Shown here piece by piece: positions 1 through 15,221 of a DNA stretch of 23,780 bases. This DNA is from a virus (lineage: Duplodnaviria > Heunggongvirae > Uroviricota > Caudoviricetes), in the IMG/VR virus record IMGVR_UViG_3300015207_000030, positions 1 through 23,780 of that record; one strand, 5' to 3'. Both the position numbers and the translations under genes were made by a program. The first letter of the stretch is position 1. Each line of letters begins with the position of its first letter. Below the pieces are notes generated by a model, which saw only the letters and a list, made by a program, of their open reading frames with translations, had not been told where the DNA came from and did not search any database.

Positions 1-342
1 AACGGAAGCCGCTACCATATGCTTAACCTCCACGCGACATTTACAAAGGGAACGGTCGAGTTCAGACTTTTTCAATTCGATGCGCCGAGCGACGGCAAAC
101 AAAATGGGCTACACGCGGGGCAGCTCAAGAGTTACATTCAGCTTTGTCTGGCACTGAGCGCACTTGCCAAGAACGCGAAAAGCGCCTCGCCCAAGCCCCA
201 GCAGACCGAAAACCCGAAATACGCGATGAGAACATGGCTGCTCCGCCTCGGCTTTATCGGCGACGAATTCAAGACCGCGCGTGAGACTTTCACAAAGCGG
301 CTCGACGGCAACGGTTCATTCCGAGCGCGCCGAGCGGCTTAA
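1..342 (+). CDS. Amidoligase-family protein (glutamine-synthetase-like fold), C-terminal part; gene starts upstream of the window
   Basis: Frame is open from base 1 (first listed Met at 19). The motif KGTVEFRLFQFD matches the G-T-x-E-x-R signature that lies near the C-terminal end of the catalytic domain in carboxylate-amine ligases, so the gene must start upstream. Followed by an AIG2-like gene, the neighbourhood reported for this family in Firmicutes. Motif recalled from memory. Confidence 0.5.
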   Translation, partial: NGSRYHMLNLHATFTKGTVEFRLFQFDAPSDGKQNGLHAGQLKSYIQLCLALSALAKNAKSASPKPQQTENPKYAMRTWLLRLGFIGDEFKTARETFTKRLDGNGSFRARRAA

Positions 343-419
343 CGCGGACCGCTTGCCCGCTTCGGCGGGCTTAAGGCGGTAGAGGAACGGTTGAACGTCC
401 TCGGAAAGGTGGAATTACA

Positions 420-872
420 ATGAAAAAACTGTACTTAGCTTACGGGAGCAATCTGAACACGGAGCAAATGCGCTTCCGCTGCCCGGGTGCAAAGCCCGTC
501 GGTACGGCGGTGATACGCAATTACGAGCTGCTGTTCAAGGGCTCGCGGACGGGCGCGTACCTCACGATAGAGCCGAAGCGCGGCGGCAAAGTTCCCGTTG
601 CGGTGTGGGAGGTAAGCGCCGAGAACGAACGGGCACTCGACCGTTACGAGGGCTTCCCGGCGTTCTACTACAAAAAGGATATGAACGTCAATGTCAGGCT
701 CCCTGACGGCACGGCCGAACGCCGAGCGGCTTTCGTGTACGTTATGCACGAGGAGCGTCCGCTCGGTGTGCCGACGGGAGCATACGTCGAATGCTGCCGC
801 GAGGGCTACGGGGAATTCGGCTTTGACGAACGGTTTATTGATAATGCAATCGAAAGGAGCGTGAATGTATGA
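420..872 (+). CDS. Gamma-glutamyl cyclotransferase-like protein (AIG2/GGCT family)
   Basis: 150 aa; N-terminal LYLAYGSNL motif (YGSN signature of AIG2/GGCT), later VAVWEV and LDRYEGFPAFYYKK segments typical of the fold; RBS AAAGGTGG about 7 nt upstream of ATG 420. Confidence 0.75.
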   Translation: MKKLYLAYGSNLNTEQMRFRCPGAKPVGTAVIRNYELLFKGSRTGAYLTIEPKRGGKVPVAVWEVSAENERALDRYEGFPAFYYKKDMNVNVRLPDGTAERRAAFVYVMHEERPLGVPTGAYVECCREGYGEFGFDERFIDNAIERSVNV

Positions 873-1072
873 ATAACAAGCACAGTGAGCGGCTTGGCGT
901 TGAATTCTGCCCGAAATGCGGCAAAGCGATAAGCGGCTATCCCGCAGTCTCGCGCGTCGACGGTTCGCCGATATGCTCCGACTGCGGTACCCGCGAGGCT
1001 TTGGAGAGCATTGGAGCGTGCGCCGCAGAGCAGGACAGGATCATCGAGCTGATACACAGGAATAGCCGTTGA
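869..1072 (+). CDS. Small zinc-ribbon protein (CxxC...CxxC)
   Basis: 67 aa with CPKCG and CSDCG pairs; start overlaps the stop of the GGCT-like gene (ATGA), suggesting translational coupling. Confidence 0.55.
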   Translation: MNNKHSERLGVEFCPKCGKAISGYPAVSRVDGSPICSDCGTREALESIGACAAEQDRIIELIHRNSR

Positions 1073-1080
1073 TATTCGTT

Positions 1081-1200
1081 TTGTGCAAATCCAACAATAT
1101 CACAATCCGATATTTGTGCACGTTTTTTGCGAAAAATGTAACGAATGTAACGAATGTAACGAACGAAGTGTGCTATAATTAAAATGGCAACAGAATGACC
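1081..1200. repeat. Copy A of a ~120 bp promoter-like direct repeat (copy B at 2839..2959)
   Basis: Aligns by eye with 2839..2959 at high identity. Contains TTGTGCA twice, an imperfect inverted repeat (CAACAATATC / GATATTTGTG), three perfect tandem 9-mers ATGTAACGA (1136..1162) and an extended -10 TGcTATAAT (1171..1179). Confidence 0.75.
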
Positions 1201-1224
1201 GTTCCGAACAAACGGCGGATAAAT

Positions 1225-1260
1225 AAAGCAACGGCAGCTCATTAACTGCCGTTGCTTTGT
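1225..1260 (-). terminator. Intrinsic terminator hairpin downstream of vapC; may also stop + strand transcripts from repeat A
   Basis: Perfect stem GCAACGGCAG (1228..1237) / CTGCCGTTGC (1246..1255) with 8 nt loop; A-tract on + strand upstream gives a U-tract on the minus-strand transcript; TTTGT follows on + strand. Confidence 0.6.
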
Positions 1261-1294
1261 ATATGGCACTTCCTTTTAAGAGTTCGTCGGACGT

Positions 1295-1699
1295 TCAAAG
1301 CGTTTCAAGAAAACTGCCGGGTTTGATCGCGGGGATATCGCTTTCCTCAAAATCGCGCGTGTTTTGGGTGATGATGTATTTGCACGAATTACGCTTTGCC
1401 GTGAGCATTTGAACGGAATCCTCAAAATCCCGCGCTTTAAGCCGTGCTGCTCCCAGCGTGTCTGCGGCTTTGAGATCGACAACGTCAAATATTGCCGCCA
1501 GCTTTATCACAAGATCGTCGGTTTTGTCGGGAGTAAGCTCGCGGCGGAGAATATACACGATATTCGCAATAGACAACGCGGAAACGATACCGTTTATCTG
1601 TCTTGTCTCGCACAGCTTCCATACCTCTGCGGACTGCTCAAAGCCTTGACGGCGTGAAAGCACATCTATCAGAATGTTTGTGTCAATCAAGACCTTCAT
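1295..1699 (-). CDS. vapC: PIN-domain toxin, VapC family
   Basis: 134 aa; N-terminal MKVLIDTNILID with the conserved acidic residue, plus DFEDS and IITQNTRDF segments typical of PIN nucleases; overlaps the upstream antitoxin gene by 17 nt. Confidence 0.8.
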   Translation of the reverse strand: MKVLIDTNILIDVLSRRQGFEQSAEVWKLCETRQINGIVSALSIANIVYILRRELTPDKTDDLVIKLAAIFDVVDLKAADTLGAARLKARDFEDSVQMLTAKRNSCKYIITQNTRDFEESDIPAIKPGSFLETL

Positions 1700-1916
1700 G
1701 CCGCATTACCTTCTCCTCGCGCATTTTTTTGTAATCATAATCGTTTTTTAGAACGCCCGTCAGCTCGTCGGTCAATGATGAAACGGTCTTTTCACGCGAA
1801 ATCATTCTTGCGACCTCTTCGCCGTTTTTGGTGATCCGGATTTCTTCGTTTGACTGCACCAGCTTCAGATATTTTCCGAAGTTGTTCTGCATTTCCGTTG
1901 CGGATACTGTTAACAT
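1683..1916 (-). CDS. Phd/YefM-family antitoxin
   Basis: 77 aa; N-terminal VSATEMQNNFGKYLKLV...ITKNGEEVARMIS pattern of Phd/YefM antitoxins; GGAGG RBS (complement of 1925..1930) about 8 nt upstream of the start. Confidence 0.75.
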   Translation of the reverse strand: MLTVSATEMQNNFGKYLKLVQSNEEIRITKNGEEVARMISREKTVSSLTDELTGVLKNDYDYKKMREEKVMRHEGLD

Positions 1917-1937
1917 AATAAATTCCTCCTTTGCATA

Positions 1938-1978
1938 TTAGCTAATTATATTATAGCTTATTTTAGCTAATTTGTCAA
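1938..1978 (-). promoter_or_regulatory. Consensus sigma-A-type promoter of the phd-vapC operon with two TTAGCTAA palindromic operator candidates
   Basis: On the minus strand: TTGACA (1978..1973), 17 nt spacer, TATAAT (1955..1950), both perfect consensus. The 8 bp palindrome TTAGCTAA occurs inside the spacer (1963..1970) and just downstream of the -10 (1938..1945). Confidence 0.6.
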
Positions 1979-2172
1979 GGGGAAAGTTAAGGAAAAAATA
2001 AGCTATGCCGTATAAAGCAAAGCGCACCTGCAATTTTCCGTGCTGTCCGAAAAAGGTACTGTGACGCCCCCGCGGGGGAGACTGCGGGCTCGTCGACCCC
2101 GAATTGCACGCAGTGACAGGCGAAAAAAAGGGGTCACTTTAATTGAAAAAGGTTGAAAGGAAGGTATAGGAT

Positions 2173-2823
2173 ATGCCGGGAAAAAGGAAAGCGGCGCAAA
2201 CAAATTCATTAGGTATGCAGAGCGGCAGCGGACAGGCGATTTTCTCTCTGCAAGCCGGAACGCCTATTTTTGTCAAGACTGCCGACGTGTGCTCGGCAAC
2301 GGGCAAAACCAATCAGTGGATAGGACAGCTGACTTCACAAGGGGTTATTCACAAATGCAGAACAAACCACGGTCAGCTGTACAGTCTTTTTGATATGATG
2401 CGGGCATACTGCGCATACCTTGAAGAACGCGCGAAAAAGGACGATGAGGATATCTGCCTGCTTGAGCTGCGAAAAAAACAAGCCGAAACCAAACTGAAAG
2501 AATCCAAGGCTGCTGTCGCGGAACTTGAGGCAGCCGAGTTTCAAGGAAAAATGCACCGCTCGGAGGACGTGCGCGCAATGACCGCCGATCTGTTGTATTA
2601 CGTTCGCGGTTCGCTGCTGGCGCTCGCGGGAAGATGCGCGGCAGACTGCGCCGCGTCGGCTGATCCTGCGGAGGTACAGAAGATCATAGAACGGGAGGTT
2701 TTCGCGATACTTAAAGACCTCTCCGAATACAAGTATGACAGCAAACGTTACGACGAGCTAGTCCGCGAACGCATGAAACGCAGTTCGGACACGGAGCTTT
2801 CCGATTTTGACGATGAAGATTGA
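2173..2823 (+). CDS. Terminase small subunit, lambda Nu1-like (winged HTH)
   Basis: 216 aa; N-terminal segment (VKTADVCSATGKTNQWIGQLTSQGVI...GQLYSLFDMMRAYCAYLEERAK) parallels the lambda Nu1 N-terminus as I recall it (TIQNW..QG...LYD...Y..R); coiled-coil middle, acidic C-terminus; sits upstream of the large terminase. Confidence 0.55.
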   Translation: MPGKRKAAQTNSLGMQSGSGQAIFSLQAGTPIFVKTADVCSATGKTNQWIGQLTSQGVIHKCRTNHGQLYSLFDMMRAYCAYLEERAKKDDEDICLLELRKKQAETKLKESKAAVAELEAAEFQGKMHRSEDVRAMTADLLYYVRGSLLALAGRCAADCAASADPAEVQKIIEREVFAILKDLSEYKYDSKRYDELVRERMKRSSDTELSDFDDED

Positions 2824-2838
2824 CGGATCGGTGTTGAC

Positions 2839-2959
2839 TTGTGCAAGTTGAACAATATCGCAAAACGATATTTGTGCAGCTTTTTTCAAAAAAATGTAAC
2901 GAATGTCACGAATGTAACGAATGAAGTGTGCTATAATTAAAATGGAAACAGAATGATCT
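2839..2959. repeat. Copy B of the promoter-like direct repeat
   Basis: Same architecture as copy A: TTGTGCA x2, inverted repeat, 9-mers ATGTAACGA / ATGTCACGA / ATGTAACGA (2894..2920), extended -10 TGcTATAAT (2929..2937). Confidence 0.75.
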
Positions 2960-2991
2960 TGCGGGACAGACGGTTTCTTTTAGAATATTTG

Positions 2992-3027
2992 CGGCTTGCG
3001 GTGTAATATTGCAAGCCGTTTCCTTTG
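2992..3027 (+). terminator. Hairpin plus T-tract between repeat B and the VRR-NUC gene (possible attenuator)
   Basis: Stem CGGCTTGC (2992..2999) / GCAAGCCG (3011..3018), 11 nt loop, followed by TTTCCTTTG directly before the RBS of the next gene. Confidence 0.4.
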
Positions 3028-3042
3028 TGAGGTGAAATTGAA

Positions 3043-3414
3043 GTGCAGCAAAAACAGCATATTGAAGATACCGAGCAGATACATCTTTTTGATTGGGCGG
3101 CGATGCAGTCGGGGAAATATCCCGAATTGTCGCTGCTTTTTCATATCCCGAACGGCGGCAAGCGTGACGCACGTGAGGCGGCGCGGTTCAAAAGAATGGG
3201 CGTAAAGGCGGGCGTTCCCGATCTGTTTCTGCCCGTTCCGCGCGGGAAGTTTCACGGATTGTTTGTCGAACTGAAAGCGCCGAAAGGAAAACTTTCCGAT
3301 TATCAGAAGCAGTGGCTTCAGGAGCTTGCGGCGAGCGGCTACGCGGCTTGCGTTTGTTTCGGTTTCGACGAGGCTCGGCAGGATATTATGAAGTATCTTG
3401 AGGGGAAATTCTGA
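3043..3414 (+). CDS. VRR-NUC domain nuclease (PD-(D/E)xK superfamily)
   Basis: 123 aa from a GTG start with RBS GAGGTG; motifs HIPNGG.R, GVPDL and FVELK...GKLS..Q..W match the VRR-NUC signature as I recall it. Confidence 0.75.
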   Translation: MQQKQHIEDTEQIHLFDWAAMQSGKYPELSLLFHIPNGGKRDAREAARFKRMGVKAGVPDLFLPVPRGKFHGLFVELKAPKGKLSDYQKQWLQELAASGYAACVCFGFDEARQDIMKYLEGKF

Positions 3415-3434
3415 TTTTGCAATCGATTGCAAAA
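3415..3434. promoter_or_regulatory. Perfect 20 bp palindrome TTTTGCAATCGATTGCAAAA
   Basis: Starts immediately after the VRR-NUC stop codon; perfect dyad symmetry read directly from the sequence. Confidence 0.5.
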
Positions 3435-3524
3435 ATTGCGCTGCGGAACGAACACGGAGCAGAATATGATTTTAGTTTGATAACCGCCGCGCTCTGCGGT
3501 TTTTCTTTTACGGAGGTGTAGAAC

Positions 3525-5441
3525 TTGCGAAACGAGACCAAGCGGCAGCGGGAGGCAAAGCTGAACGCGTGTATCACGAAAGTCTTGAACGCGATGAAGC
3601 CTCCCGAAATAAGAACAGTGGCGGAGTGGGCGGATAAGAACCGCCGTTTAACGTCGGAATCATCGGCGGAGGTAGGCAAATGGCGCACCTCGCGCACGCC
3701 GTATATGCTGGATATTCTGAACTCGTTCACCGACCCGAAGGTCGAGCACATTGTTGTGGTTGCCTCCTCGCAGGTCGGGAAATCCGAGGTTGAAAACAAT
3801 ATCGTCGGATACATTATAGATCAGGACCCCGGTCCGATATTATTTGTACAGCCGACGGTAGACGACGCGAAGAAATATTCCGAAATGCGTATCGCTCCGA
3901 TGATACGTGAAACAAAGTGCCTTAAGAAAAAGGTCGCGGACCCGAAAACGCGCGATGGCGCAAACACCAAGCGTCAGAAAGCGTTTCCGGGAGGAGTGCT
4001 CGTGCTAGCGGGTTCAAATGTTCCACATGATCTGTGTTCAATGCCTATTCGGTATCTGATCGGCGACGAGCGTGACCGTTGGGCAAAATCGGCGGGCTCG
4101 GAGGGCGATCCATGGGAACTGGCGGTCGCGCGTACAAGAACGTTTTACAACCGCAAGCTGATAGAGGTCTCCACGCCGACCGTTAAAGGAGCGTCCGCTA
4201 TTGCCAAGGCGTACAGTCTCGGTACTATGGAGCGTTGGAAAACACAATGTCAGCATTGCGGCGGGTATTCCGAGGTGCAGTTTGAAGATATCCGTTTTGA
4301 ATATGATTCCGTTGACAAAGATGAAGAGAAGATATTCGATATCAAGTCGATTTTCTATGTTTGTCCGATTTGCGGCGGCGTTTCTTTGGAGAACGAGGTG
4401 AAAAAACAGCCGTCGAAATGGGAGGCGGAAGTGCCCGAGGCAAAGGAACTGCATAAGACCCGTTCGTTCTGGCTGACGGCATGGGTCTCCCCGTGGGCAA
4501 CATGGGAGTCTATCATACTGCAATTCCTGCAAGCGGGTACGGATTCCGCAAAGCTGCAGGTAGTGTACAACACTCAATTCGGCAAGCTGTGGGAAAATCG
4601 CGGCGATATGGACAGCGAGGAGGATATGCTCGCGCGTCGCGAGGAATACGGTGCGGAGCTGCCGGACGGCGTTCTGGTGCTGACGTGCGGCGTTGATACA
4701 CAGGACGACCGCTTGGAATATGAGGTGGTGGGCTATGGACATTTTAAAGAAAAATGGGGCATAAAAAAGGGCGTCATTATGGGCAGACCCGATACAAACG
4801 AAGTGTGGGAGCGGCTTGATGATGTTATAGCTCACAAATACACATTTTCAAACGGGCTGTCGCTCGGCGTATCGTTGACGTTTGTCGATGAGGGCGGTCA
4901 TTTTACACAGGAGGTACGCAGGCGCTGCCGCGAGCGGCAAAGCAAAAACGTATTTGCGATCAAGGGCGCATCGGGCAGTCGGGATATTCCGTATACGTCC
5001 GTTCCGAAACGGCAGAAGATCGTAATAAACGGTCAGACCGTCGGTTCTGTATGGGTGTATGAGATCGGCGTTGACGCGGGCAAGCAAAAGATCTTTGACG
5101 ATCTGCGTGTGCAGACGCCCGGGGCGAATTACTGCCATTTCCCGCGCCGCGACGATTACGGTAAGGCGTTCTTCAAGTCGTATATGTCGGAACGCCTGAC
5201 ATATAACGAAAAACTCAAAAACCCGTGGCGTTGGGAAAAAATTCCCGGGCATGAGCGTAACGAGGCACTGGACTGCCGAAATTACGCAAACGCGGCATTT
5301 GCGGCACTCGATCCCGATCTTGACGCTGTCGAACATCGATTAAAAGCGATGTTAATCGGAACAACGGCAGGCGCGCCGAAAAAGAAATCCCCGAAAACAG
5401 CGAGAAGAAAGCCGACGGACACGGCATACAGCGATTGGTGA
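3525..5441 (+). CDS. terL: Terminase large subunit, lambda GpA family
   Basis: 638 aa; TTG start after RBS GGAGGTG; Walker A-like SSQVGKSE within a PYMLDILNS...LFVQPTVDDA...PMIRE block matching the lambda gpA N-terminal ATPase region; CQHCGG and CPICGG zinc-finger-like pairs. Confidence 0.85.
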   Translation: MRNETKRQREAKLNACITKVLNAMKPPEIRTVAEWADKNRRLTSESSAEVGKWRTSRTPYMLDILNSFTDPKVEHIVVVASSQVGKSEVENNIVGYIIDQDPGPILFVQPTVDDAKKYSEMRIAPMIRETKCLKKKVADPKTRDGANTKRQKAFPGGVLVLAGSNVPHDLCSMPIRYLIGDERDRWAKSAGSEGDPWELAVARTRTFYNRKLIEVSTPTVKGASAIAKAYSLGTMERWKTQCQHCGGYSEVQFEDIRFEYDSVDKDEEKIFDIKSIFYVCPICGGVSLENEVKKQPSKWEAEVPEAKELHKTRSFWLTAWVSPWATWESIILQFLQAGTDSAKLQVVYNTQFGKLWENRGDMDSEEDMLARREEYGAELPDGVLVLTCGVDTQDDRLEYEVVGYGHFKEKWGIKKGVIMGRPDTNEVWERLDDVIAHKYTFSNGLSLGVSLTFVDEGGHFTQEVRRRCRERQSKNVFAIKGASGSRDIPYTSVPKRQKIVINGQTVGSVWVYEIGVDAGKQKIFDDLRVQTPGANYCHFPRRDDYGKAFFKSYMSERLTYNEKLKNPWRWEKIPGHERNEALDCRNYANAAFAALDPDLDAVEHRLKAMLIGTTAGAPKKKSPKTARRKPTDTAYSDW

Positions 5442-5451
5442 GGTAACCGAA

Positions 5452-5709
5452 ATGATAAGTAAAAAAACCGCGCGGAAGATGTACAACTACTACACCGAGC
5501 GCATAGATCAGCTGATACAAGCGCAGACCGCATTGACGAGCGGCGGCGTTAAATCGTACACTATCGGCGACAGACAGGTCACGAAATTTGACTTGACGCG
5601 GCTGTCGCAGGAGCTTGATGATGCTGTGGAGAAACAGGCGTATTACGATGCGATACTTAAAGGCAAGCCTACGCGCGCGATCGTGGGGATCGTTCCGACG
5701 GATAAATAA
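5452..5709 (+). CDS. Head-tail joining / head completion protein, lambda gpW-like
   Basis: 85 aa directly after terL; LTSGG...YTIGDRQVT...L..L pattern resembles lambda W; position matches lambda gene order. Confidence 0.5.
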   Translation: MISKKTARKMYNYYTERIDQLIQAQTALTSGGVKSYTIGDRQVTKFDLTRLSQELDDAVEKQAYYDAILKGKPTRAIVGIVPTDK

Positions 5710-5740
5710 AACAGCGGCAGCTTTGAGGGCTGCCGCTGCT
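5710..5740. terminator. Bidirectional intrinsic terminator shared by the W-like gene (+) and hicB (-)
   Basis: Stem CAGCGGCAGC (5712..5721) / GCTGCCGCTG (5729..5738) with 7 nt loop; A-rich on the left (U-tract for the minus transcript) and T-containing on the right. Confidence 0.6.
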
Positions 5741-5743
5741 TGG

Positions 5744-6151
5744 TTAATCTTGAATGTGACATTGCTTTTTCAGACCGTCCAGAAGCACGGCTGAGAAATT
5801 CACGCCCTGTTCTTCGGCGATTGCGTTGACCCAACCGGGAATGGAGAGGGTTTTCTTTACGAAGTGCTTGTGCATTTTCTCGCGGAACGGTTTCATATAG
5901 ACTTCGATAAGCATTGGAAGCTCGTTTTTTTCAAGCTGAATATCCTTAAGCTCCGAGGGCTCAGGAATTTCCTCCTTGTCCTCCTCCATTCCGTAAAGGT
6001 GCAGCAGAAGAGCGTCTTTAGCGCTTTCGATTGCTTTTTCGGTGGTTTCCCCCGCGCTTACACAGCCGGGGAGGTCGGGGAAATATATGCCGATTGTTCC
6101 TTTATCGCCGTATTCCAACACGGCGATAAATCTGTATTTGTCGAGGTACAT
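5744..6151 (-). CDS. hicB: HicB-family antitoxin-like protein with C-terminal DNA-binding (RHH-like) tail; no HicA partner found
   Basis: 135 aa; N-terminal YRFIAVLEYGDKGTIGIYFPDLPGCVSAGETTEKAIESAKDALLLHL matches the HicB/UPF0150 signature (PDLPGC core); C-terminal KKTLSIPGWVNAIAEEQGVNFSAVLLDGLKK resembles an RHH/CopG-type segment; RBS AGGAG 6 nt upstream. Confidence 0.75.
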   Translation of the reverse strand: MYLDKYRFIAVLEYGDKGTIGIYFPDLPGCVSAGETTEKAIESAKDALLLHLYGMEEDKEEIPEPSELKDIQLEKNELPMLIEVYMKPFREKMHKHFVKKTLSIPGWVNAIAEEQGVNFSAVLLDGLKKQCHIQD

Positions 6152-6262
6152 AAAGTTCTCCTTTCGATAGTCGGCATTACCGAGGGTTTAACAATTATAT
6201 TGTAATACGCAATTTGTTACGTGTCAAGTGGCTTTTCAAAAATTTTTAAAGAAGGTGAAAAA

Positions 6263-7777
6263 ATGAGCGGCTATTCAGATGCGGGCGCGAGTTATGACAA
6301 ACGCGCCTTAAAAGCCTTTATAGCGCGTTCTCTGTCGGCGATAGAGGATATCGACTATAACAACTTTACGCTGCGGCAGCGTGCGCGTATGCTGTATATG
6401 GCGTCGCCGATAGCGGCGGCAGCGATCAACACCAACCGCACAAAGATAGTCGGCAAAGGTCTGCGGCTGAAATGCAACATTGATTATGAGACGCTGGGGA
6501 TTTCCCCCGAGGCAGCCAAGAAATGGTGCAGACGCACCGAGGCGGCGTTCCGCTTTTGGTGCGAGGATCGCCGCAACTGCGACGCGCTCGGAATAAACAA
6601 TTTTTTCGAGCTTCAAAGTCTGGCGTGCAAATCATGGCTGATGAGCGGAGACGTTTTCGTGTTGCTGAAGCGCGAAAAGGCAACTCCGCTCAATCCGTAC
6701 ACACTGCGGCTGCATCTTGTCGAAGCCGATCGCGTATGCACTCCCGCGACCGCGGACGGCGGTTTGTGGAACGTTACCGAGGGCGAGTACAAGGGTCACA
6801 AGGTGCATGACGGCGTTGAGGTCGACGACAACGGTAAAGCGGTCGCGTACCACGTCTGCAACATCTATCCGGGGCAGATGAGCGCAAAAACGGAGAATTG
6901 GGTGCGTATAAAGGCAGTCGGCGAAAAAACGGGGCTGCCGAATATTCTGCACATAATGGACGCGGAGCGTCCCGATCAGTATCGGGGCGTTTCTTATTTG
7001 GCGTCGGTTATCGAGATGATCCTGCAGCTGCGCAGATACGTTGAGAGCGAACTGTTGGCGGCGCTTGTGCAGACATACCTTACTGCGTGGATAAAAGCCG
7101 CAGGCGACACGTCAGAAATGCCTATCATAGGGGATCAGGACGAGGAGGACGAAGAGGAACGATATGACAAAGACCCGCAGATGGCTCCCGGGAACGTTAT
7201 ACATTTAAAGCCCGGCGAGGATGTTATTTTCGGCAATCCGAATATCCCGACAGCGGGCTTTGAGACGTTCTCCAAGACGATCATAAAGCAGATAGGCGCT
7301 GGGCTTGAAATACCGTATGATGTGCTTGTCAAAGAGTTCAATTCCTCGTATTCCGCGTCAAAGGGCGCGCTCGAGGAGGCTTGGGAGGCTGTCAAAATGC
7401 GCCGCGCGTGGTTCGTGTCGGATTTTTGCCAGCCGATTTACGAGGTCTGGCTTTCGGAGGCGGTCGCGCTCGGCAAGATAAACGCTCCCGGTTTTTTCGA
7501 TGATCCGCTTATACGAGCGGCTTGGTGCGGTTCACGCTGGGACGGCCCCGCGCAAACTCACCTTGATCCGCTTAAAGAGGCAAAAGCAAACGCTATACTC
7601 GTTCAGAACGGCTGGAAAACCAACGAGCAGACCACACGCGAGTATTACGGCGAGAATTGGGAGGAAAATATGCAGCAGCTCGAACAGGAGAACGGGCTGA
7701 AAAACGCCGTTTGTCCGCCTGTAACAAATATGGATTTCAGCGATGAGGAGGAAGACGAAGATGCCAAAAACGATTGA
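6263..7777 (+). CDS. Portal protein, lambda gpB family
   Basis: Listed ORF starts at GTG 6221; I prefer ATG 6263 behind RBS GAAGGTGA. The segment FETFSKTIIKQIGAGLEIPYDVLVKEFNSSYSASKGALEEAWEAVKMRRAWFVSDFCQPIYEVWLSEAV parallels the lambda gpB C-terminal region as I recall it; acidic C-terminal tail. Confidence 0.8.
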   Translation: MSGYSDAGASYDKRALKAFIARSLSAIEDIDYNNFTLRQRARMLYMASPIAAAAINTNRTKIVGKGLRLKCNIDYETLGISPEAAKKWCRRTEAAFRFWCEDRRNCDALGINNFFELQSLACKSWLMSGDVFVLLKREKATPLNPYTLRLHLVEADRVCTPATADGGLWNVTEGEYKGHKVHDGVEVDDNGKAVAYHVCNIYPGQMSAKTENWVRIKAVGEKTGLPNILHIMDAERPDQYRGVSYLASVIEMILQLRRYVESELLAALVQTYLTAWIKAAGDTSEMPIIGDQDEEDEEERYDKDPQMAPGNVIHLKPGEDVIFGNPNIPTAGFETFSKTIIKQIGAGLEIPYDVLVKEFNSSYSASKGALEEAWEAVKMRRAWFVSDFCQPIYEVWLSEAVALGKINAPGFFDDPLIRAAWCGSRWDGPAQTHLDPLKEAKANAILVQNGWKTNEQTTREYYGENWEENMQQLEQENGLKNAVCPPVTNMDFSDEEEDEDAKND

Positions 7778-8999
7778 ACGCGCTTGTTATGCGCTGGCAG
7801 CCGACAGCAAATCGGAAACGGCAGAGCTTACGCTTTACGGAAACGTTGTCAAAAGGCGTCCGCTCGAGATCGATTGGGATAACGACAGGATCGCCAAGTC
7901 GACGGATAATTATATCGTTGAACAGGAATTTCTCGACGATTTAAAGGCTGTCGGGAAATGCAGGAAATTGAATATCCGCGTGAACTCTCTCGGCGGCGAT
8001 GTGCATGTCGCGCTTACAATTTACAGCCGTTTGCGCGAGCTCACGGAAAACGGCACGGAGCTTACCTGTTCCGTGGACGGAGTGGCAATGTCGGCGGGTT
8101 CGATGATAATGTGCGCCGCTGATAAGGTCACGGCAAGCGAAAGCTCGCTGATAATGGTTCACCGCAGTATGACGATGCCGCCGGATTATCTTAACGCGGA
8201 CGAGCTTCGCAAAGAGGCGGAGAGAATGGACGAGTACGACAAGGCGATAGCGTCCTGTTACAAACGCAAAACGGGAAAGTCCGAGGCGGAGCTGCTCCGC
8301 ATGATGAGTAAGGAGACATATATGACGGGCGCGGAGGCAAAGGACGCGGGCTTTGTGGACGAGCTTACAAGCTCTGAAAAATTAATAGCGATCGCGGCTT
8401 GTGCGGATATGAGATCACTTATGGTGGGCGGCAGAACGTTCGATTTAATGGGCGCTCCCATGCCCTTGAATTTACCGACGGTAACACAGCCCGAGCCGCA
8501 AGGCGGCGCGGACGTTACAGATATATCACAAACTGAAGGAGGTAACGGAATTATGGCAAATAACTTTGATGAACTGCTTAAAGAGAACCCCGCTCTCGCG
8601 GCGGCTATCGAAAAGGAGTTAAAGGCAAAAGCCGAGGCGGACGTTTCGGCTAAGGCGAACGAGACGGCAGCTAAAGCGGTCGAAGCGGAGCGGAAGAGAA
8701 TAGCCGAGATCGACGAGATAGCGGCGCTGTATTCTCCCGAACTGGTGGAGGCGGCGAAGTACGGCGACAAGGCGTGTACAGCGCAGGAACTCAGCTACAG
8801 AGCGGCTGTCGAGAACGCCAAGAGGGGCAGGAAGTTCGGCGACGATCTTCTGGCTGACGCAAAGGATTCGGGAGTGGGCGGCGTTCATGCTGCCGTTCCG
8901 CCCGCCGAGGGCAATGGCGGCGAAAAGTCGGAGGACGAGCTTATGGCAGAGGCAAGAGCAGCCGTTAAGGCGGCGCTCGGAGAGGAGGTAACGGCATGA
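7761..8999 (+). CDS. Prohead protease (ClpP/S49-like) fused to or nested with a scaffold domain, lambda gpC-like
   Basis: NSLGGDV and GVAMSAGSMIM match ClpP-family serine protease motifs; C-terminal third is Ala/Glu/Lys-rich coiled coil typical of scaffolds. Start could be ATG 7743 or ATG 7761 (RBS GAGGAGG). Confidence 0.75.
   Translation: MPKTIERACYALAADSKSETAELTLYGNVVKRRPLEIDWDNDRIAKSTDNYIVEQEFLDDLKAVGKCRKLNIRVNSLGGDVHVALTIYSRLRELTENGTELTCSVDGVAMSAGSMIMCAADKVTASESSLIMVHRSMTMPPDYLNADELRKEAERMDEYDKAIASCYKRKTGKSEAELLRMMSKETYMTGAEAKDAGFVDELTSSEKLIAIAACADMRSLMVGGRTFDLMGAPMPLNLPTVTQPEPQGGADVTDISQTEGGNGIMANNFDELLKENPALAAAIEKELKAKAEADVSAKANETAAKAVEAERKRIAEIDEIAALYSPELVEAAKYGDKACTAQELSYRAAVENAKRGRKFGDDLLADAKDSGVGGVHAAVPPAEGNGGEKSEDELMAEARAAVKAALGEEVTA
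8553..8999 (+). CDS. Possible nested in-frame scaffold protein (lambda Nu3-like arrangement)
   Basis: Internal in-frame ATG at 8553 preceded by strong RBS GAAGGAGG (8535..8542); downstream sequence is the coiled-coil Ala/Glu-rich part of the protease ORF. Confidence 0.35.
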   Translation: MANNFDELLKENPALAAAIEKELKAKAEADVSAKANETAAKAVEAERKRIAEIDEIAALYSPELVEAAKYGDKACTAQELSYRAAVENAKRGRKFGDDLLADAKDSGVGGVHAAVPPAEGNGGEKSEDELMAEARAAVKAALGEEVTA

Positions 9000-9364
9000 C
9001 GGAGCTGTCAAAGAAAACAGCCGCTATGGAGCCCGACGATCTGGTAGTCGGCACACAGCCGCCTTTGCGGACGGTCGGCGCGACCGTTAAAGGCGGCGCG
9101 GGCGAGCTTAAACGCGGCACGATAATGGCAAAGGGAGCGGACGGACTGCTGGATATTCTCGGAAAAGATACCGAAGCGGAGGCTTACGGCATTCTGACCG
9201 ACGATATCAACGCTGCCGACGGCGATCAGCCCGCAGTGATCTACATCAGCGGCAAATTCAACGCCAACAAAATGATCGCCGCGGACGGCTATACGATCAC
9301 GGAAAAAGACAAGGATACGCTACGCAAGTACGGCATCGAGCTTACCGCCGCGCTGTCCTATTGA
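8996..9364 (+). CDS. Head decoration protein, lambda gpD-like
   Basis: 122 aa between protease/scaffold and major capsid; AYGILTDDINAADGDQPAVIYISGKFNANKMI resembles the lambda D core (GILA...T.Y.SG.F). Confidence 0.55.
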   Translation: MTELSKKTAAMEPDDLVVGTQPPLRTVGATVKGGAGELKRGTIMAKGADGLLDILGKDTEAEAYGILTDDINAADGDQPAVIYISGKFNANKMIAADGYTITEKDKDTLRKYGIELTAALSY

Positions 9365-9384
9365 TAAAAGGAGGGACTTTGATA

Positions 9385-10461
9385 ATGCCTAATACGCTTG
9401 ATATTTTCAGCTCCTATACAATGCTGGCGACTCTGGAGCTTGTTAAGCCCGAGACGCTGTTCTTTTCGTCGCGCTATTTCCCTACGGGAGCGGGGGATAT
9501 TTTCAATTCCGACAAGGTGCTTGTCGAATACACAAAGGGCGACCGCAAAATGGCTCCGTTCGTTTCGGAGAGGATCGGCGCTGTTCCCGTTGAGAGACGG
9601 GGCTACGAGATACGCGAGTTTGCGCCCGCGCACATCGGCGTTTCGCGCACGCTCACTCTGGACGATCTTAAAAAGCGCGGGTTCGGCGAGGCGCTGTACT
9701 CCAATACCAAGCCCGCGGAGCGCGCTCTGCGTATGCAGCTTGAGGATATGACCGATCTTAACAAACGCATTTCACGCCGCGAGGAGTGGATGTCGGTGCA
9801 GACCATGATCAACAACGCCTGCCCCGTACAGGAGATGTTTGACGCGAAAACGGTGGGCGAGGAGAAACTCGTACAGTTCTTCGGCAGCGAAAGCTCCGAG
9901 CATATTTACACCGTCGCCAATATGTGGAATTCCAAAGACGGAAACATAACCGGAGACGTTTATGTAATGTGCGAGCAGCTTGCAGGCAGAGGACTGAACG
10001 CCGTCGATCTGGTTATCGGCTCGGACGTTGCGGACGTGTTCTACGACGATCCTGTCATCGCGAGAATGATAGACAAAAACTCGGGCATCAATTTCGGCAT
10101 GATAAACGAGCAGATAGTTTATCCCGGAGTATCGCAGATAGGTCCTCTTAATTTCAGAGGGCACTGGCTGACCATTTATGTGGTGTCGACGTCTTACGAG
10201 GACGAAAACGGCGTTACAAGACCGTATTTCCCCAAAAATTCGGCTATGGTAACATATCCGAATTGCGGCCACAAAATGTACGGGCGGATCACGCAGATGC
10301 CTTACGGTTCTATCGATTACAAGACGATCGCGGCAAAACGTGTTCCGAAGCTTATAGTGGACAATGCCAACGATACGAGAGCGCTGTCGCTCAAAACGCG
10401 TCCGCTTACTGCACCGAGGACATACTGCCCGTACATCTACGCGGCAAACGTAGTGGGCTGA
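9385..10461 (+). CDS. Major capsid protein, lambda gpE family
   Basis: ATG 9385 behind RBS AAAGGAGGG; the N-terminal 90 aa share the pattern Y...P..F.S.YFP...MA.FVS...PV...G..EF.P with lambda E as I recall it; size and position fit. Confidence 0.75.
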   Translation: MPNTLDIFSSYTMLATLELVKPETLFFSSRYFPTGAGDIFNSDKVLVEYTKGDRKMAPFVSERIGAVPVERRGYEIREFAPAHIGVSRTLTLDDLKKRGFGEALYSNTKPAERALRMQLEDMTDLNKRISRREEWMSVQTMINNACPVQEMFDAKTVGEEKLVQFFGSESSEHIYTVANMWNSKDGNITGDVYVMCEQLAGRGLNAVDLVIGSDVADVFYDDPVIARMIDKNSGINFGMINEQIVYPGVSQIGPLNFRGHWLTIYVVSTSYEDENGVTRPYFPKNSAMVTYPNCGHKMYGRITQMPYGSIDYKTIAAKRVPKLIVDNANDTRALSLKTRPLTAPRTYCPYIYAANVVG

Positions 10462-10483
10462 CGCATTGGGAAAGGAGAACGAT

Positions 10484-10918
10484 ATGCTGATAAAGATCAT
10501 TCGCGGTACATACGGACTTAAAAGCGGCAATATTATCAAGCCGAAAACCTGCAGCGACCCGCCCTTTCATGTTGAACATGAGGAGGGCGAGCGGCTGATA
10601 CGTCTTGGTATTGCTGATTTAGTTTTCTCTGACACTATGCCGCCTGTAAGGAACAAAGGGGACGATCCGAATGCTGTTCCCGACAGCAAGGTTCGGGTGT
10701 TGGACAGCGATGACGACGAGGGCTACGAGGTCAAGAGCACGGTTGAAGAACGCGACGTTCCCGAATACAGCGAGGACAACACAAACGCCGAATTGCAAGC
10801 GATTGCAAAAGAATACGGCATAGAATTTCCGCAGCGTGCAAACAAGGCGCAGATGCTCGACGCGCTTGACGAGTTTTTCGGCGGCACGCCCGAGATCAGC
10901 GCAAGGGAGCCCGAATAA
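10484..10918 (+). CDS. Hypothetical head-associated protein with C-terminal HeH/Rho-N-like motif
   Basis: ATG 10484 with RBS AAGGAG; C-terminal NAELQAIAKEYGIEFPQRANKAQMLDALDEF resembles a Rho-N/SAP-like helix-extension-helix motif; acidic middle. Confidence 0.45.
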   Translation: MLIKIIRGTYGLKSGNIIKPKTCSDPPFHVEHEEGERLIRLGIADLVFSDTMPPVRNKGDDPNAVPDSKVRVLDSDDDEGYEVKSTVEERDVPEYSEDNTNAELQAIAKEYGIEFPQRANKAQMLDALDEFFGGTPEISAREPE

Positions 10919-14228: not shown

Positions 14229-14756
14229 ATGAGCAGAGAAATAGAGGGTACTATTGCCGCGTATGTTTACGAGAACGGCGTAAACTTTCTGGGTCTGGCA
14301 AAGGTTGATATGCCGGACATTTCGTTCAAAACGTTCACATCGAGCGGACTGGGAATGTGCGGAGACGTGGAGCACGGAGCGCTGTGTCAATTCCAGCCCA
14401 TGAAAATGACCTTGCATTTCCGCGATACCAACACGGCATTTTACGCACTCAGCGATCAGAGGATACATCAGCTTACGCTGGAGGTCGCGAAACAGGTTCA
14501 CGAATACCAAGCGGGAGAAATTCCCGTCACAGGGGTCAAATATGTTGTGGATTTCGAGCCGCTTAAGACAACGGGCGGCAGCATAGAGCCCGCAACGCCG
14601 CAGAATGTTACTGCGGAGGGCTCCGTGTCTATGTTTAAGGAATTTATCAACGGAATTCTTGAACGTCATATTGACGTAACAAAATATATCTACATCGGTC
14701 ACGACGGCGTAGACCGCGCCGCGCCGATACGCAAGGCACTGAATATGGCGTACTGA
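14229..14756 (+). CDS. Tail tube protein
   Basis: 175 aa directly after the sheath gene with RBS AAAAGGAGGG; synteny-based. Confidence 0.65.
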   Translation: MSREIEGTIAAYVYENGVNFLGLAKVDMPDISFKTFTSSGLGMCGDVEHGALCQFQPMKMTLHFRDTNTAFYALSDQRIHQLTLEVAKQVHEYQAGEIPVTGVKYVVDFEPLKTTGGSIEPATPQNVTAEGSVSMFKEFINGILERHIDVTKYIYIGHDGVDRAAPIRKALNMAY

Positions 14757-14767
14757 TGAATAACCAA

Positions 14768-14800
14768 GTATCCCTCCGCGTTCGGAGGGATACGCTTTTT
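14768..14800 (+). terminator. Intrinsic terminator after the tail tube gene
   Basis: Stem GTATCCCTCCG (14768..14778) / CGGAGGGATAC (14783..14793), 4 nt loop, followed by GCTTTTT. Confidence 0.6.
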
Positions 14801-14819: not shown

Positions 14820-15221
14820 ATGGATAATGAAGAGATTTTGGGCGGCGAGCTTACCGACGAGGAAAACAAGGCGGTCGACGACGCTGCAGGGAAGATCAGA
14901 AACGACGTAATGACGCCCGACGGCGTTTGGAAGTGCGAGCTGTCAAAGCCGATCACACACAACGGCATTGAATACAGCGAGCTTACGTTCAACTTCGGGA
15001 AGCTCACGGGCGCGGACGCTGTTAATATCGAGGACGAGCTTTCCGCAAAGGGAAAACCCGTGTTTATGAACGAGGCGGCTAACAGTTCGTATCTTATTTT
15101 AATGGCGGCGAGGGCGTGCGAGGAGCATATAAGCTCCGACGCGTTCAAGCGTATGAGCATTGTCGATTTTAACAGGATAAAGAACAAGGCGCGGCTTTTT
15201 TTATTGGGCGTTGCGGTGTAA
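14820..15221 (+). CDS. Tail assembly chaperone (XkdN-like), zero-frame product
   Basis: 133 aa between tube and tape measure; RBS AAAGGAG; ends with the slippery run described in the next feature. Confidence 0.6.
   Translation: MDNEEILGGELTDEENKAVDDAAGKIRNDVMTPDGVWKCELSKPITHNGIEYSELTFNFGKLTGADAVNIEDELSAKGKPVFMNEAANSSYLILMAARACEEHISSDAFKRMSIVDFNRIKNKARLFLLGVAV

Follow-up and report, generated by a model that had tools for sequence, protein, structure and literature searches.

In this study, we analysed a 23,780-nucleotide (nt) stretch of DNA from a tailed phage (IMG/VR record IMGVR_UViG_3300015207_000030, positions 1 to 23,780; hereafter, the window), which represents the start of the late region of the phage. 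We conclude, with a probability of approximately 0.7, that positions 2881-3042 form a sigma-A late promoter that depends on a regulator of the Ltr superfamily and is followed by a real leader terminator, and that the phage is a temperate siphophage of the Oscillospiraceae type. This promoter (copy B) is located between the small terminase gene (terS) and a VRR-NUC gene, and a related promoter (copy A) is present upstream of terS. The analysis was computational throughout, and relatives were compared by sequence. The elements of copy B are as follows:

2839-2878, + strand: upstream block, common to copy A (1081-1120)
2881-2893, + strand: T-tract followed by an A-tract (TTTTTTCAAAAAA), at about -64 to -52
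2894-2902, 2903-2911 and 2912-2920, + strand: three tandem 9-mers, ATGTAACGA, ATGTCACGA and ATGTAACGA
2927-2937, + strand: extended -10 element TGTGCTATAAT, i.e. TGTG-C-TATAAT (TRTGn plus the hexamer at 2932-2937)
2938-2965, + strand: A/T-rich discriminator with a second -10-like hexamer, TAAAAT (2938-2943)
2991-3028, + strand: leader hairpin (2991-3019) with the T-rich tail TTCCTTTGT, a predicted intrinsic terminator at about +47 to +85
3029-3414, + strand: Shine-Dalgarno (SD) sequence GAGGTG (3029-3034) and the first downstream gene, VRR-NUC (GTG 3043 to 3414)

The initial annotation had described here a second 9-mer array containing one variant unit together with an extended -10 element, and both are found, at 2894-2920 and 2927-2937. 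Individual 9-mers are not unusual in the window (7 matches versus 5.3 expected), and the non-random element is the tandem triplet. The extended -10 motif TRTGNTAWAAT occurs in the 23.8 kb only at 1169-1179 (copy A) and 2927-2937 (copy B), in both cases 6 nt 3' of an array; 0.14 matches were expected, and none of 100 shuffled sequences contained two. When the sequence was read by eye, no acceptable -35 hexamer was found 16-18 nt upstream of the -10 hexamer, and a simple two-hexamer promoter scan lists neither of the two sites. Transcription is predicted to start at G2944/G2945 from the usual spacing of 7 nt after the -10 hexamer; relative to this start, the array spans about -51 to -25, which is the place of the -35 element and the proximal UP region. 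The T-tract/A-tract just 5' of the repeats may be UP-element-like, judging from the Escherichia coli/Bacillus subtilis UP consensus. It is well supported by the sequence comparisons that this is probably a sigma-A promoter built on an extended -10 element, in which phage-specific Ltr sites replace the -35 element.

Copies A and B are 85% identical over 135 nt (2839-2973 versus 1081-1215), with near-complete identity between TTGTGCA and AGAATGA, and the initially transcribed region, GGAAACAGAATGATCTTGC, is common to both. The elements of copy A are:

1081-1264, + strand: copy A, with the same upstream block and TGTGCTATAAT at 1169-1179
1136-1162, + strand: three exact 9-mer units
1228-1255, + strand: terminator stem followed by the tail TTTGTATAT (-30.4 kcal/mol, z = -5.35)

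This degree of identity within one genome is what would be expected if copy B were a functionless by-product of a recent duplication of this region. However, a homologous promoter with a hairpin is present between terS and the VRR-NUC gene in six related contigs (L081, L143, L145, L199, L200 and L201), in which the copy A region is absent, and we regard this explanation as extremely unlikely.

The relatives were gathered through homologues of TerS, VRR-NUC and Ltr, and they are annotated as phages of Oscillospiraceae or Ruminococcaceae. One contig, L109 (62 kb), which was reached via the GGACT protein, is 99.35% identical to window 1-10871 (offset 9581) and revealed both a third promoter copy and the probable regulator gene. 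The ltr gene (L109 4726-5133; protein P0001, 135 amino acids) is outside the window, 7.4 kb upstream of copy B, and comes after replication-type genes (RNase_T, YopX and methylases). The third copy is:

L109 5189-5232: P0, consisting of ATGTAACGA, ATGTCACTT and TTGTTACGA, 11 nt ending in TGTGA, and then TATAAT TAAAAT

The P0 array (5189-5215) begins 56 nt past the ltr stop codon, beyond that gene's own terminator, and part of the initially transcribed region of copies A and B (ATGATCTTGC) is also common to P0. Repeats are located directly distal to the ltr gene in L096, L116, L142 and L199 as well. P0 precedes a Terminase_4-like gene, methylases, an amidoligase and other genes that lead into the window. 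The source phage thus contains three promoter copies (P0, A and B), and several relatives contain two.

In every relative, a single 9-mer is used by all of the promoters of a given phage, whereas different phages have different 9-mers (TAAC, TCAC, TTAC, TCCC and TCTC types):

window phage and L109: ATGTAACGA, in P0, A and B
L145 and L201: ATGTCACGA, in P0 and B
L143 and L081: TGTCACGA, in P0 and B
L199: ATGT(T/A)ACGA, in P0 and B
L096 family: TGTCCCC, in P0 and B
L142: TTGTTAC, in P0
L001: TGTCTCA, in one copy, before an HNH endonuclease gene

A scan of IMG/VR for TGTCACGAATGTCACG detected further unrelated phages (L148, L164, L166, L167 (twice), L170, L177, L193 and L195) that have two units 10-11 nt from an extended -10 element. 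An alignment of 23 promoters on the -10 hexamer yielded the consensus of a T-run/A-run, two to three units of (A/T)TGTnnCnn, about 6 nt, TGTGa, TAtAAT and nAAAAT, with the distance from the array to the -10 hexamer fixed at 10-12 nt in all 23 and a -10-like hexamer 5-6 nt after the -10 hexamer in 18 of them. The recurrence of the array and extended -10 with the same spacing in so many phages bears out the promoter proposed by the initial annotation. CAGAAT (2949-2954, about +6 to +11) is common only to the homologous B-type leaders. At the VRR-NUC loci of L002-L080, no such promoters were present near the gene, and no ltr homologue was detected with two queries. The exact 27-mer array had no match in IMG/VR, a blastn search of 1040-3060 against INPHARED returned no match, and window 1-6400 gave no relevant match to Rfam even with permissive E-values.

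P0001 matches phrog_36 ('transcriptional regulator', E 1e-13) and, in Pfam, weakly matches Sigma70_r4_2 and DUF1492, staying below all Pfam cut-offs. A HMMER search of 1.8 billion representatives collected 85 relatives of about 130 amino acids. Among the 79 that were aligned, 18 match DUF1492, 15 Sigma70_r4_2, 9 Sigma70_r4 and 4 DUF722, and 40 match, below cut-off, the sigma70-ECF (extracytoplasmic function) superfamily model in its C-terminal part. In the AlphaFold model of P0001 (pLDDT 91.7), a long helical hairpin precedes a three-helix bundle with a sigma-region-4 fold. The protein has an isoelectric point (pI) of 8.8, and its homologues are small and basic (pI 8.5-9.7 in eight of nine). 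The DUF1492/Sigma70_r4 matches of the family and the predicted fold lead us to assign P0001 to the late transcriptional regulators of the Ltr superfamily, of the RinA/ArpU/LtrA-C kind, an assignment that follows from homology and modelling. This superfamily comprises the RinA, ArpU, LtrA (Sigma70_r4), LtrB (DUF1492) and LtrC families, the members of which bind direct repeats just distal to their own gene, upstream of terS (Quiles-Puchalt et al., PMC3753634). They switch on terS and the late operon, and their specificity resides in the C-terminal domain (PMC3753634; PMC13123087). The zinc-ribbon protein encoded at 869-1072 was considered as the regulator by analogy to Ogr/Delta and was dropped, because in relatives its gene is not beside the promoters, whereas the Ltr-family gene is.

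We infer that the Ltr protein binds the three 9-mers. The shared regulator suggested by the initial annotation gains substance from the position of the third copy next to a sigma-region-4-like Ltr-family gene and from the use of one 9-mer per phage. In the predicted recognition helix, the residue that follows a conserved SVK varies with the site: TAAC and TTAC sites go together with Q, TTAC sites also with M, TCAC sites with R or H and TCCC sites with K; among these nine mutually related proteins, the apparent tracking of the 9-mer type by this residue is suggestive. The TGTAAC core of the 9-mers resembles the -35 element recognised by SigX, SigW and other ECF sigma factors. This likeness fits a reader of the region-4 type, although the 13-nt spacing is not that of ECF promoters and the -10 element is of the sigma-A type.

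Because copy B lies between terS and the large terminase gene and copy A lies upstream of terS, the arrays might instead be packaging signals bound by the small terminase, like the R sites of lambda cosB, with the -10 element being incidental. Phages of the cos type with gpA-type terminases carry repeated TerS sites beside their terminase genes, as in lambda cosB, which speaks for this idea. However, the third array is 7.4 kb away beside the ltr gene, and in 23 cases the array is at a fixed distance of 10-12 nt from an extended -10 element. In addition, the array type tracks the regulator: L144 contains the same regulator type and promoter (TTGAAACGA ATGACACGA TTGTCACGA, then TGTGCTATACT) with a quite different terminase, portal and capsid module (TerL_ATPase/Phage_portal), and thus the arrays follow the Ltr type rather than the terminase type. 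Moreover, if the arrays were cos sites, the two or three of them within 9 kb would be cut, and a more plausible cos site is offered by a separate G+C-rich block at 2049-2140. A packaging function is therefore very unlikely. That block (AAAAAGGTACTGTG..GCCCCCGCGGGGG..GCGGGCTCGTCGACCCCG..), which is non-coding and situated just upstream of terS, is conserved in all relatives examined and is a candidate cos site for the gpA-type terminase.

The second component of the locus is the leader hairpin, which had been placed between the predicted start site and the ribosome-binding site of the VRR-NUC gene and is indeed located there, at 2991-3019, 24 nt before the start codon. The copy-B hairpin has 13 pairs (6 G-C), a loop of 3 nt and the tail TTCCTTTGTG; a scan classified it as terminator-like, with its U-tract interrupted by CC. 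The stem has a predicted stability of about -16 to -18 kcal/mol. The entire leader (2944-3042) folds at -27.7 kcal/mol (z = -2.06), and 7 of 200 shuffled sequences fold as well. The hairpin is thus modest on its own, and the case for its reality is the conservation, with compensatory changes, that sequence comparison suggests. Five homologous B-type leaders (the window, L081, L143, L145 and L201) share the core CGGCTTG...CAAGCCG, and all five have a T-rich tail after the hairpin. Their stems contain no broken pair and differ by compensatory changes at 3 to 4 positions, with C-G replaced by U-A at two positions, G-C/G-U by A-U at a third and G-U/U-G by G-C at a fourth. These pairs were counted by a script on a hand alignment anchored on the CGGCTTG/CAAGCCG core, because MAFFT did not align the leaders in structural register. 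In L199, the same place of copy B is occupied by a different hairpin, CCCCGCG...CGCGGGG followed by TTTCTTGT. In the P0-type leaders, the outer arms pair CTCCT with the SD sequence AGGAG and the T-rich tail forms the spacer between SD and ATG, and the inner stems are unrelated yet self-complementary (CCGCGC, CGAGC, TGCG, CGCCAAG and ACGCG). Such a P0 hairpin would be predicted to block both transcription and translation of the first gene.

The same arrangement recurs across the promoter class. A hairpin with a T-tract was detected 40-90 nt after the -10 hexamer in 22 of 24 non-redundant promoters, compared with 26% of random 140-nt control segments and 22% of control segments with an A/T-rich start. 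Because the detector is noisy in G+C-rich coding DNA with long segments, it was calibrated on these controls and weight was placed on hairpins with a free energy (dG) of -15 kcal/mol or lower, a class that accounts for 4.7% of the random and 3.7% of the A/T-rich-start segments. This class is reached by at least nine mutually non-homologous leaders (L001, window copy A, the B group, the P0 group, L148, L166, L167b, L177/L193 and L195). The difference between 22 of 24 and a background of 22-26% indicates that the leader terminator is a feature of the promoter class and not an accident of the locus. Furthermore, the distance between the hairpin and the start codon is only 24 nt in copy B and 7 nt in P0, which leaves no room for a promoter, and therefore the hairpin must be transcribed.

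The attenuator-like placement noted in the initial annotation is thus upheld by the presence of a hairpin with a T-tract in 22 of 24 promoters and by copy-B pairing that is kept through double changes. It is not a classical attenuator, however, as no mutually exclusive antiterminator fold appeared in the minimum-free-energy or centroid folds, which contained only the terminator with or without an outer helix. No leader open reading frame was found when the sequence between 2944 and 2990 was read, and the upstream CTTGCGG resembles the 5' arm of the hairpin rather than complementing it. In the L096 family (5626-6495), a stretch of about 800 nt with tRNA genes (tRNA-Lys at 6339-6413 and a second tRNA match at 5973-6043) separates the B-type promoter and terminator from the large terminase gene downstream.

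An alternative is that the hairpin serves mRNA stability at the 5' end or, by pairing with the ribosome-binding region, adjusts translation of the first gene, that the T-run is a mere A/U-rich spacer and that late control is exerted through activation by Ltr alone. In support of this view, the P0 hairpins always pair CTCCT with the SD sequence AGGAG, their T-run coincides with the spacer between SD and ATG, the minimum-energy fold of copy B adds an outer helix that covers GAGGTG, and the T-tract of copy B is interrupted. However, the unrelated hairpins are all directly followed by a T-run, even in those leaders that are far from the start of the first gene (L199 copy B, the L096 family with its tRNA genes, L167 and L195). 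The hairpins are also GC-rich, compact and terminator-like, and the enrichment test itself required a T-tract. We consider this alternative unlikely.

On the reading that we prefer, an Ltr-dependent promoter followed by a terminator, the locus could work as follows. The sigma-A RNA polymerase of the host would read the promoter via the consensus extended -10 element. The basic, 135-amino-acid Ltr protein of the phage, with its predicted helical hairpin and sigma-region-4-like helix-turn-helix, would sit on the three head-to-tail 9-bp sites, probably as an oligomer formed through the helical hairpin, and help the polymerase to start. Transcripts would begin near 2944 and meet the hairpin and T-rich tail at about +47 to +85, where part or all of them would terminate; starts made without the regulator, such as leaky starts in the lysogen, would be stopped in this way. 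With the regulator, the terminator would be passed, either because the regulator-loaded polymerase resists it or because termination is only partial; in the latter option, termination would only set the level. The start site, termination at 2991-3028 and the passage of the terminator are predictions from the features described above.

Several points weigh against this interpretation. Within its group, copy B has the weakest T-tract (UUUCCUUUG), and the z score of the leader fold is only -2.06. The P0 hairpins also bury the SD sequence, so that part of their conservation could serve translation. The link between recognition-helix residue and 9-mer involves nine related proteins, one of which (L200, with R) is associated with mixed sites. 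With a spacing of 9 bp, successive sites are not on one face of the helix, and the proximal TGTAAC is about 4 bp nearer to the -10 hexamer than a normal -35 element. Finally, in 80alpha/phi11, the one relative that has been studied well, the published RinA-dependent 5' end is downstream of the terminator, not upstream (PMC3152322).

A further possibility, modelled on lambda Q, is that the promoter is active alone and produces a terminated RNA of about 80 nt, and that Ltr is handed to the polymerase near initiation and acts in antitermination, not recruitment. In its general form, which we put forward tentatively, the sigma-region-4-like Ltr proteins of Gram-positive phages would be promoter-loaded processive antiterminators, analogues of lambda Q with an unrelated fold. 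Several observations are in line with it. A terminator is present between promoter and first gene in 22 of 24 cases, which an ordinary activated promoter does not need, and the core is near consensus (TRTGnTATAAT). The -10-like hexamer located 5-6 nt downstream in 18 of 23 promoters, and the CAGAAT and TAGAAT sequences in the early transcribed region, recall the sigma-dependent pause elements of lambdoid PR'. Copy A is followed immediately by a strong terminator (z = -5.35), and terS at 2173 is without an evident promoter of its own; terS expression therefore seems to need read-through of 1228-1255. Antitermination would also let the polymerase cross the terminators of the reverse toxin-antitoxin cassettes. 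In 80alpha, over 155 bp, including a terminator, separate the RinA repeats from the mapped 5' end downstream of them, which the authors of that study found hard to explain by simple activation (PMC3152322). A limited literature search turned up no study in which antitermination by the Ltr family was tested.

On the other hand, published work on Ltr proteins fits plain activation, because reporters are silent without Ltr and the mapped start of Phi13 is 42 nt after the repeats (PMC13123087), and the published start site of 80alpha argues against antitermination as well. The hexamer at an offset of 5-6 nt is in the discriminator, upstream of the start, whereas the lambdoid pause elements are in the transcribed region. 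Even after read-through, the ribosome site would remain hidden in the P0 hairpins, and the Ltr fold is unrelated to that of Q. Taken on its own, the Q-like explanation is possible but rather doubtful. Along the spacer between rinA and terS of 80alpha (L204 1422-1607), two TGGCAGT repeats come first, then a possible TTGATA-N18-GATAGT promoter, next a strong terminator (1536-1559 plus T6) and last the published 5' end at C1585; this order of elements is the same as in the promoters of the window.

In our preferred interpretation, in which Ltr activates the promoter and a real terminator follows, the locus appears from its sequence to work like the Ltr-dependent late promoters of Gram-positive siphophages, and we count it as a probable member of this group by four of five features, of which binding is predicted and the match between repeats and regulator is suggestive. 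In both, the repeats are located directly after the ltr gene and before packaging genes, they are phage-specific, the regulator has a C-terminal helix-turn-helix related to sigma region 4, and the core promoter is a sigma-A one; phi11/80alpha, too, have been noted to contain a terminator in the interval from the ltr gene to terS. A single late promoter for the whole morphogenesis/lysis operon has been argued for 80alpha, whereas three copies are present here, a difference in layout and not in kind. The repeats abut the extended -10 element here (-51 to -25), whereas they are at -107 to -42 in Phi13 (Ltr/P23), at -76 to -32 in TP901-1 (Alt repeats, as cited in PMC3152322) and more than 155 bp away for RinA. 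In addition, the terminator here clearly belongs to the transcribed leader, as the sequence behind it is too short for a promoter, the host clade is Oscillospiraceae, and the protein is only distantly related to the known Ltr proteins.

The lambdoid Q/PR'/QBE/tR' system, which yields 6S RNA (StxS in Stx phages, PMC7547250), is similar in having the regulator gene directly upstream, a regulator site inside the promoter, a strong core and, ahead of a long late operon, a terminator that is reached about 50-90 nt or less from the start, and a short terminated RNA is an expected by-product of both. It differs in that the Q-family protein that defines it is absent here, where the regulator combines sigma region 4 with a helical hairpin, and in that the -10-like hexamer here is before the start, not after it. 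The middle promoters of T4 (MotA box at -30, with AsiA) also have a sigma-70-type -10 element, often extended, and a -35 element replaced by a 9-bp activator box. However, they contain one MotA box versus three tandem sites here, there is no MotA/AsiA homologue here, and the T4 design is without a leader terminator. The promoter is of a kind already known, and the class-wide leader terminator is the part that could be new biology.

The initial annotation had also stated that the same promoter architecture precedes two different downstream contexts. Both copies are real, but the two contexts are not equivalent, as copy A is in a lineage-specific segment: region 1058-2048, which contains copy A, its terminator, a reverse-strand PIN/Phd pair and an HNH remnant, in this order before terS, is without a counterpart in five relatives (L199, L145, L143, L200 and L201), in which the zinc-ribbon gene is followed by a cos-like block and terS. 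By synteny, copy B represents the ancestral copy. Window 2005-2064 is a 19-codon remnant (MPYKAKRTCNFPCCPKKVL, then stop) of a phage HNH endonuclease gene, and an intact HNH gene is found after the same promoter type and terminator, before terS, in L001 (971-1327) and L144. The toxin-antitoxin pair seems to have replaced most of the HNH gene, and, since promoter and terminator precede an intact HNH gene in L001 and L144, copy A is probably the promoter of the lost gene.

The Phd/PIN operon has a perfect TTGACA-17-TATAAT promoter (window 1978-1950, - strand) inside an inverted repeat (1919-1945 / 1963-1989), which may be the antitoxin operator. Two homologous bidirectional terminators, at 1213-1258 and 5696-5741, are identical at 24 of 27 positions at the 5' side, and an A-T pair in the stem of one is replaced by a compensatory G-C pair in the other. 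Each of them is at the 3' end of a reverse toxin-antitoxin insert (PIN/Phd, 1295-1916; HicB, 5744-6151, with no HicA), and neither can be avoided by late transcription of the + strand. Another bidirectional terminator, compact and strong (GTATCCCTCCG-CGTT-CGGAGGGATAC, about -19 kcal/mol), is present at 14762-14799, between the + strand late genes 14229-14756 and 14820-15221, and must likewise be read through. Downstream of copy B, the VRR-NUC gene (PF08774, E 9e-14) is followed by the gpA-type large terminase gene (3525-5441). The other genes of this part of the window are:

19-342: amidoligase fragment
420-872: GGACT
869-1072: zinc-ribbon protein
1295-1699, reverse strand: PIN toxin
1683-1916, reverse strand: Phd antitoxin
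2173-2823: small terminase (terS), phrog_57
5452-5709: gpW-like adaptor
5744-6151, reverse strand: HicB, followed by the portal and the remaining late genes

The upstream block of copy B contains TTGTGCA as a direct repeat (2839-2845 and 2872-2878) on either side of the palindrome AATATCG-N5-CGATATT (2854-2872). Copies A and B, but not the P0 copies, are preceded by the palindrome AATATC-N7-GATATT with flanking TTGTGCA, and AATATC-N7-GATATT is kept in relatives with different 9-mers (L199, L081 and L096 copy B). Its interpretation as the terS terminator was rejected because the stem is too weak and A/U-rich. The P0-type leaders (L109 5233-5321; L145, L143, L142, L096, L116, L199 and L200) share TGTAATCTTGA at about +2 to +12. 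In L142, Csf1, RAMP and Csf3 Pfam matches (type IV CRISPR-Cas-like, 6614-9260) are located just upstream of the ltr gene.

The timing of host killing and DNA packaging by a prophage is set by the switching of its late genes, which, to our knowledge, is essentially unstudied in gut Clostridia (Oscillospiraceae). The locus provides a compact example of Ltr control, with short exact sites that abut the -10 element, several copies per genome and natural variation of the sites, which makes the specificity between regulator and site directly testable and offers portable, phage-specific promoters. The members of this large superfamily (RinA, ArpU, LlgA and others) also control SaPI transfer and active lysogeny in Listeria. 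If the antiterminator reading is true, it would resolve the old puzzle that one terminator and more than 155 bp separate the mapped terS 5' end from the RinA sites upstream of it. If the near-universal leader terminator, which was the unexpected element, is regulated, the accepted 'activator' picture of this superfamily would need an antitermination step.

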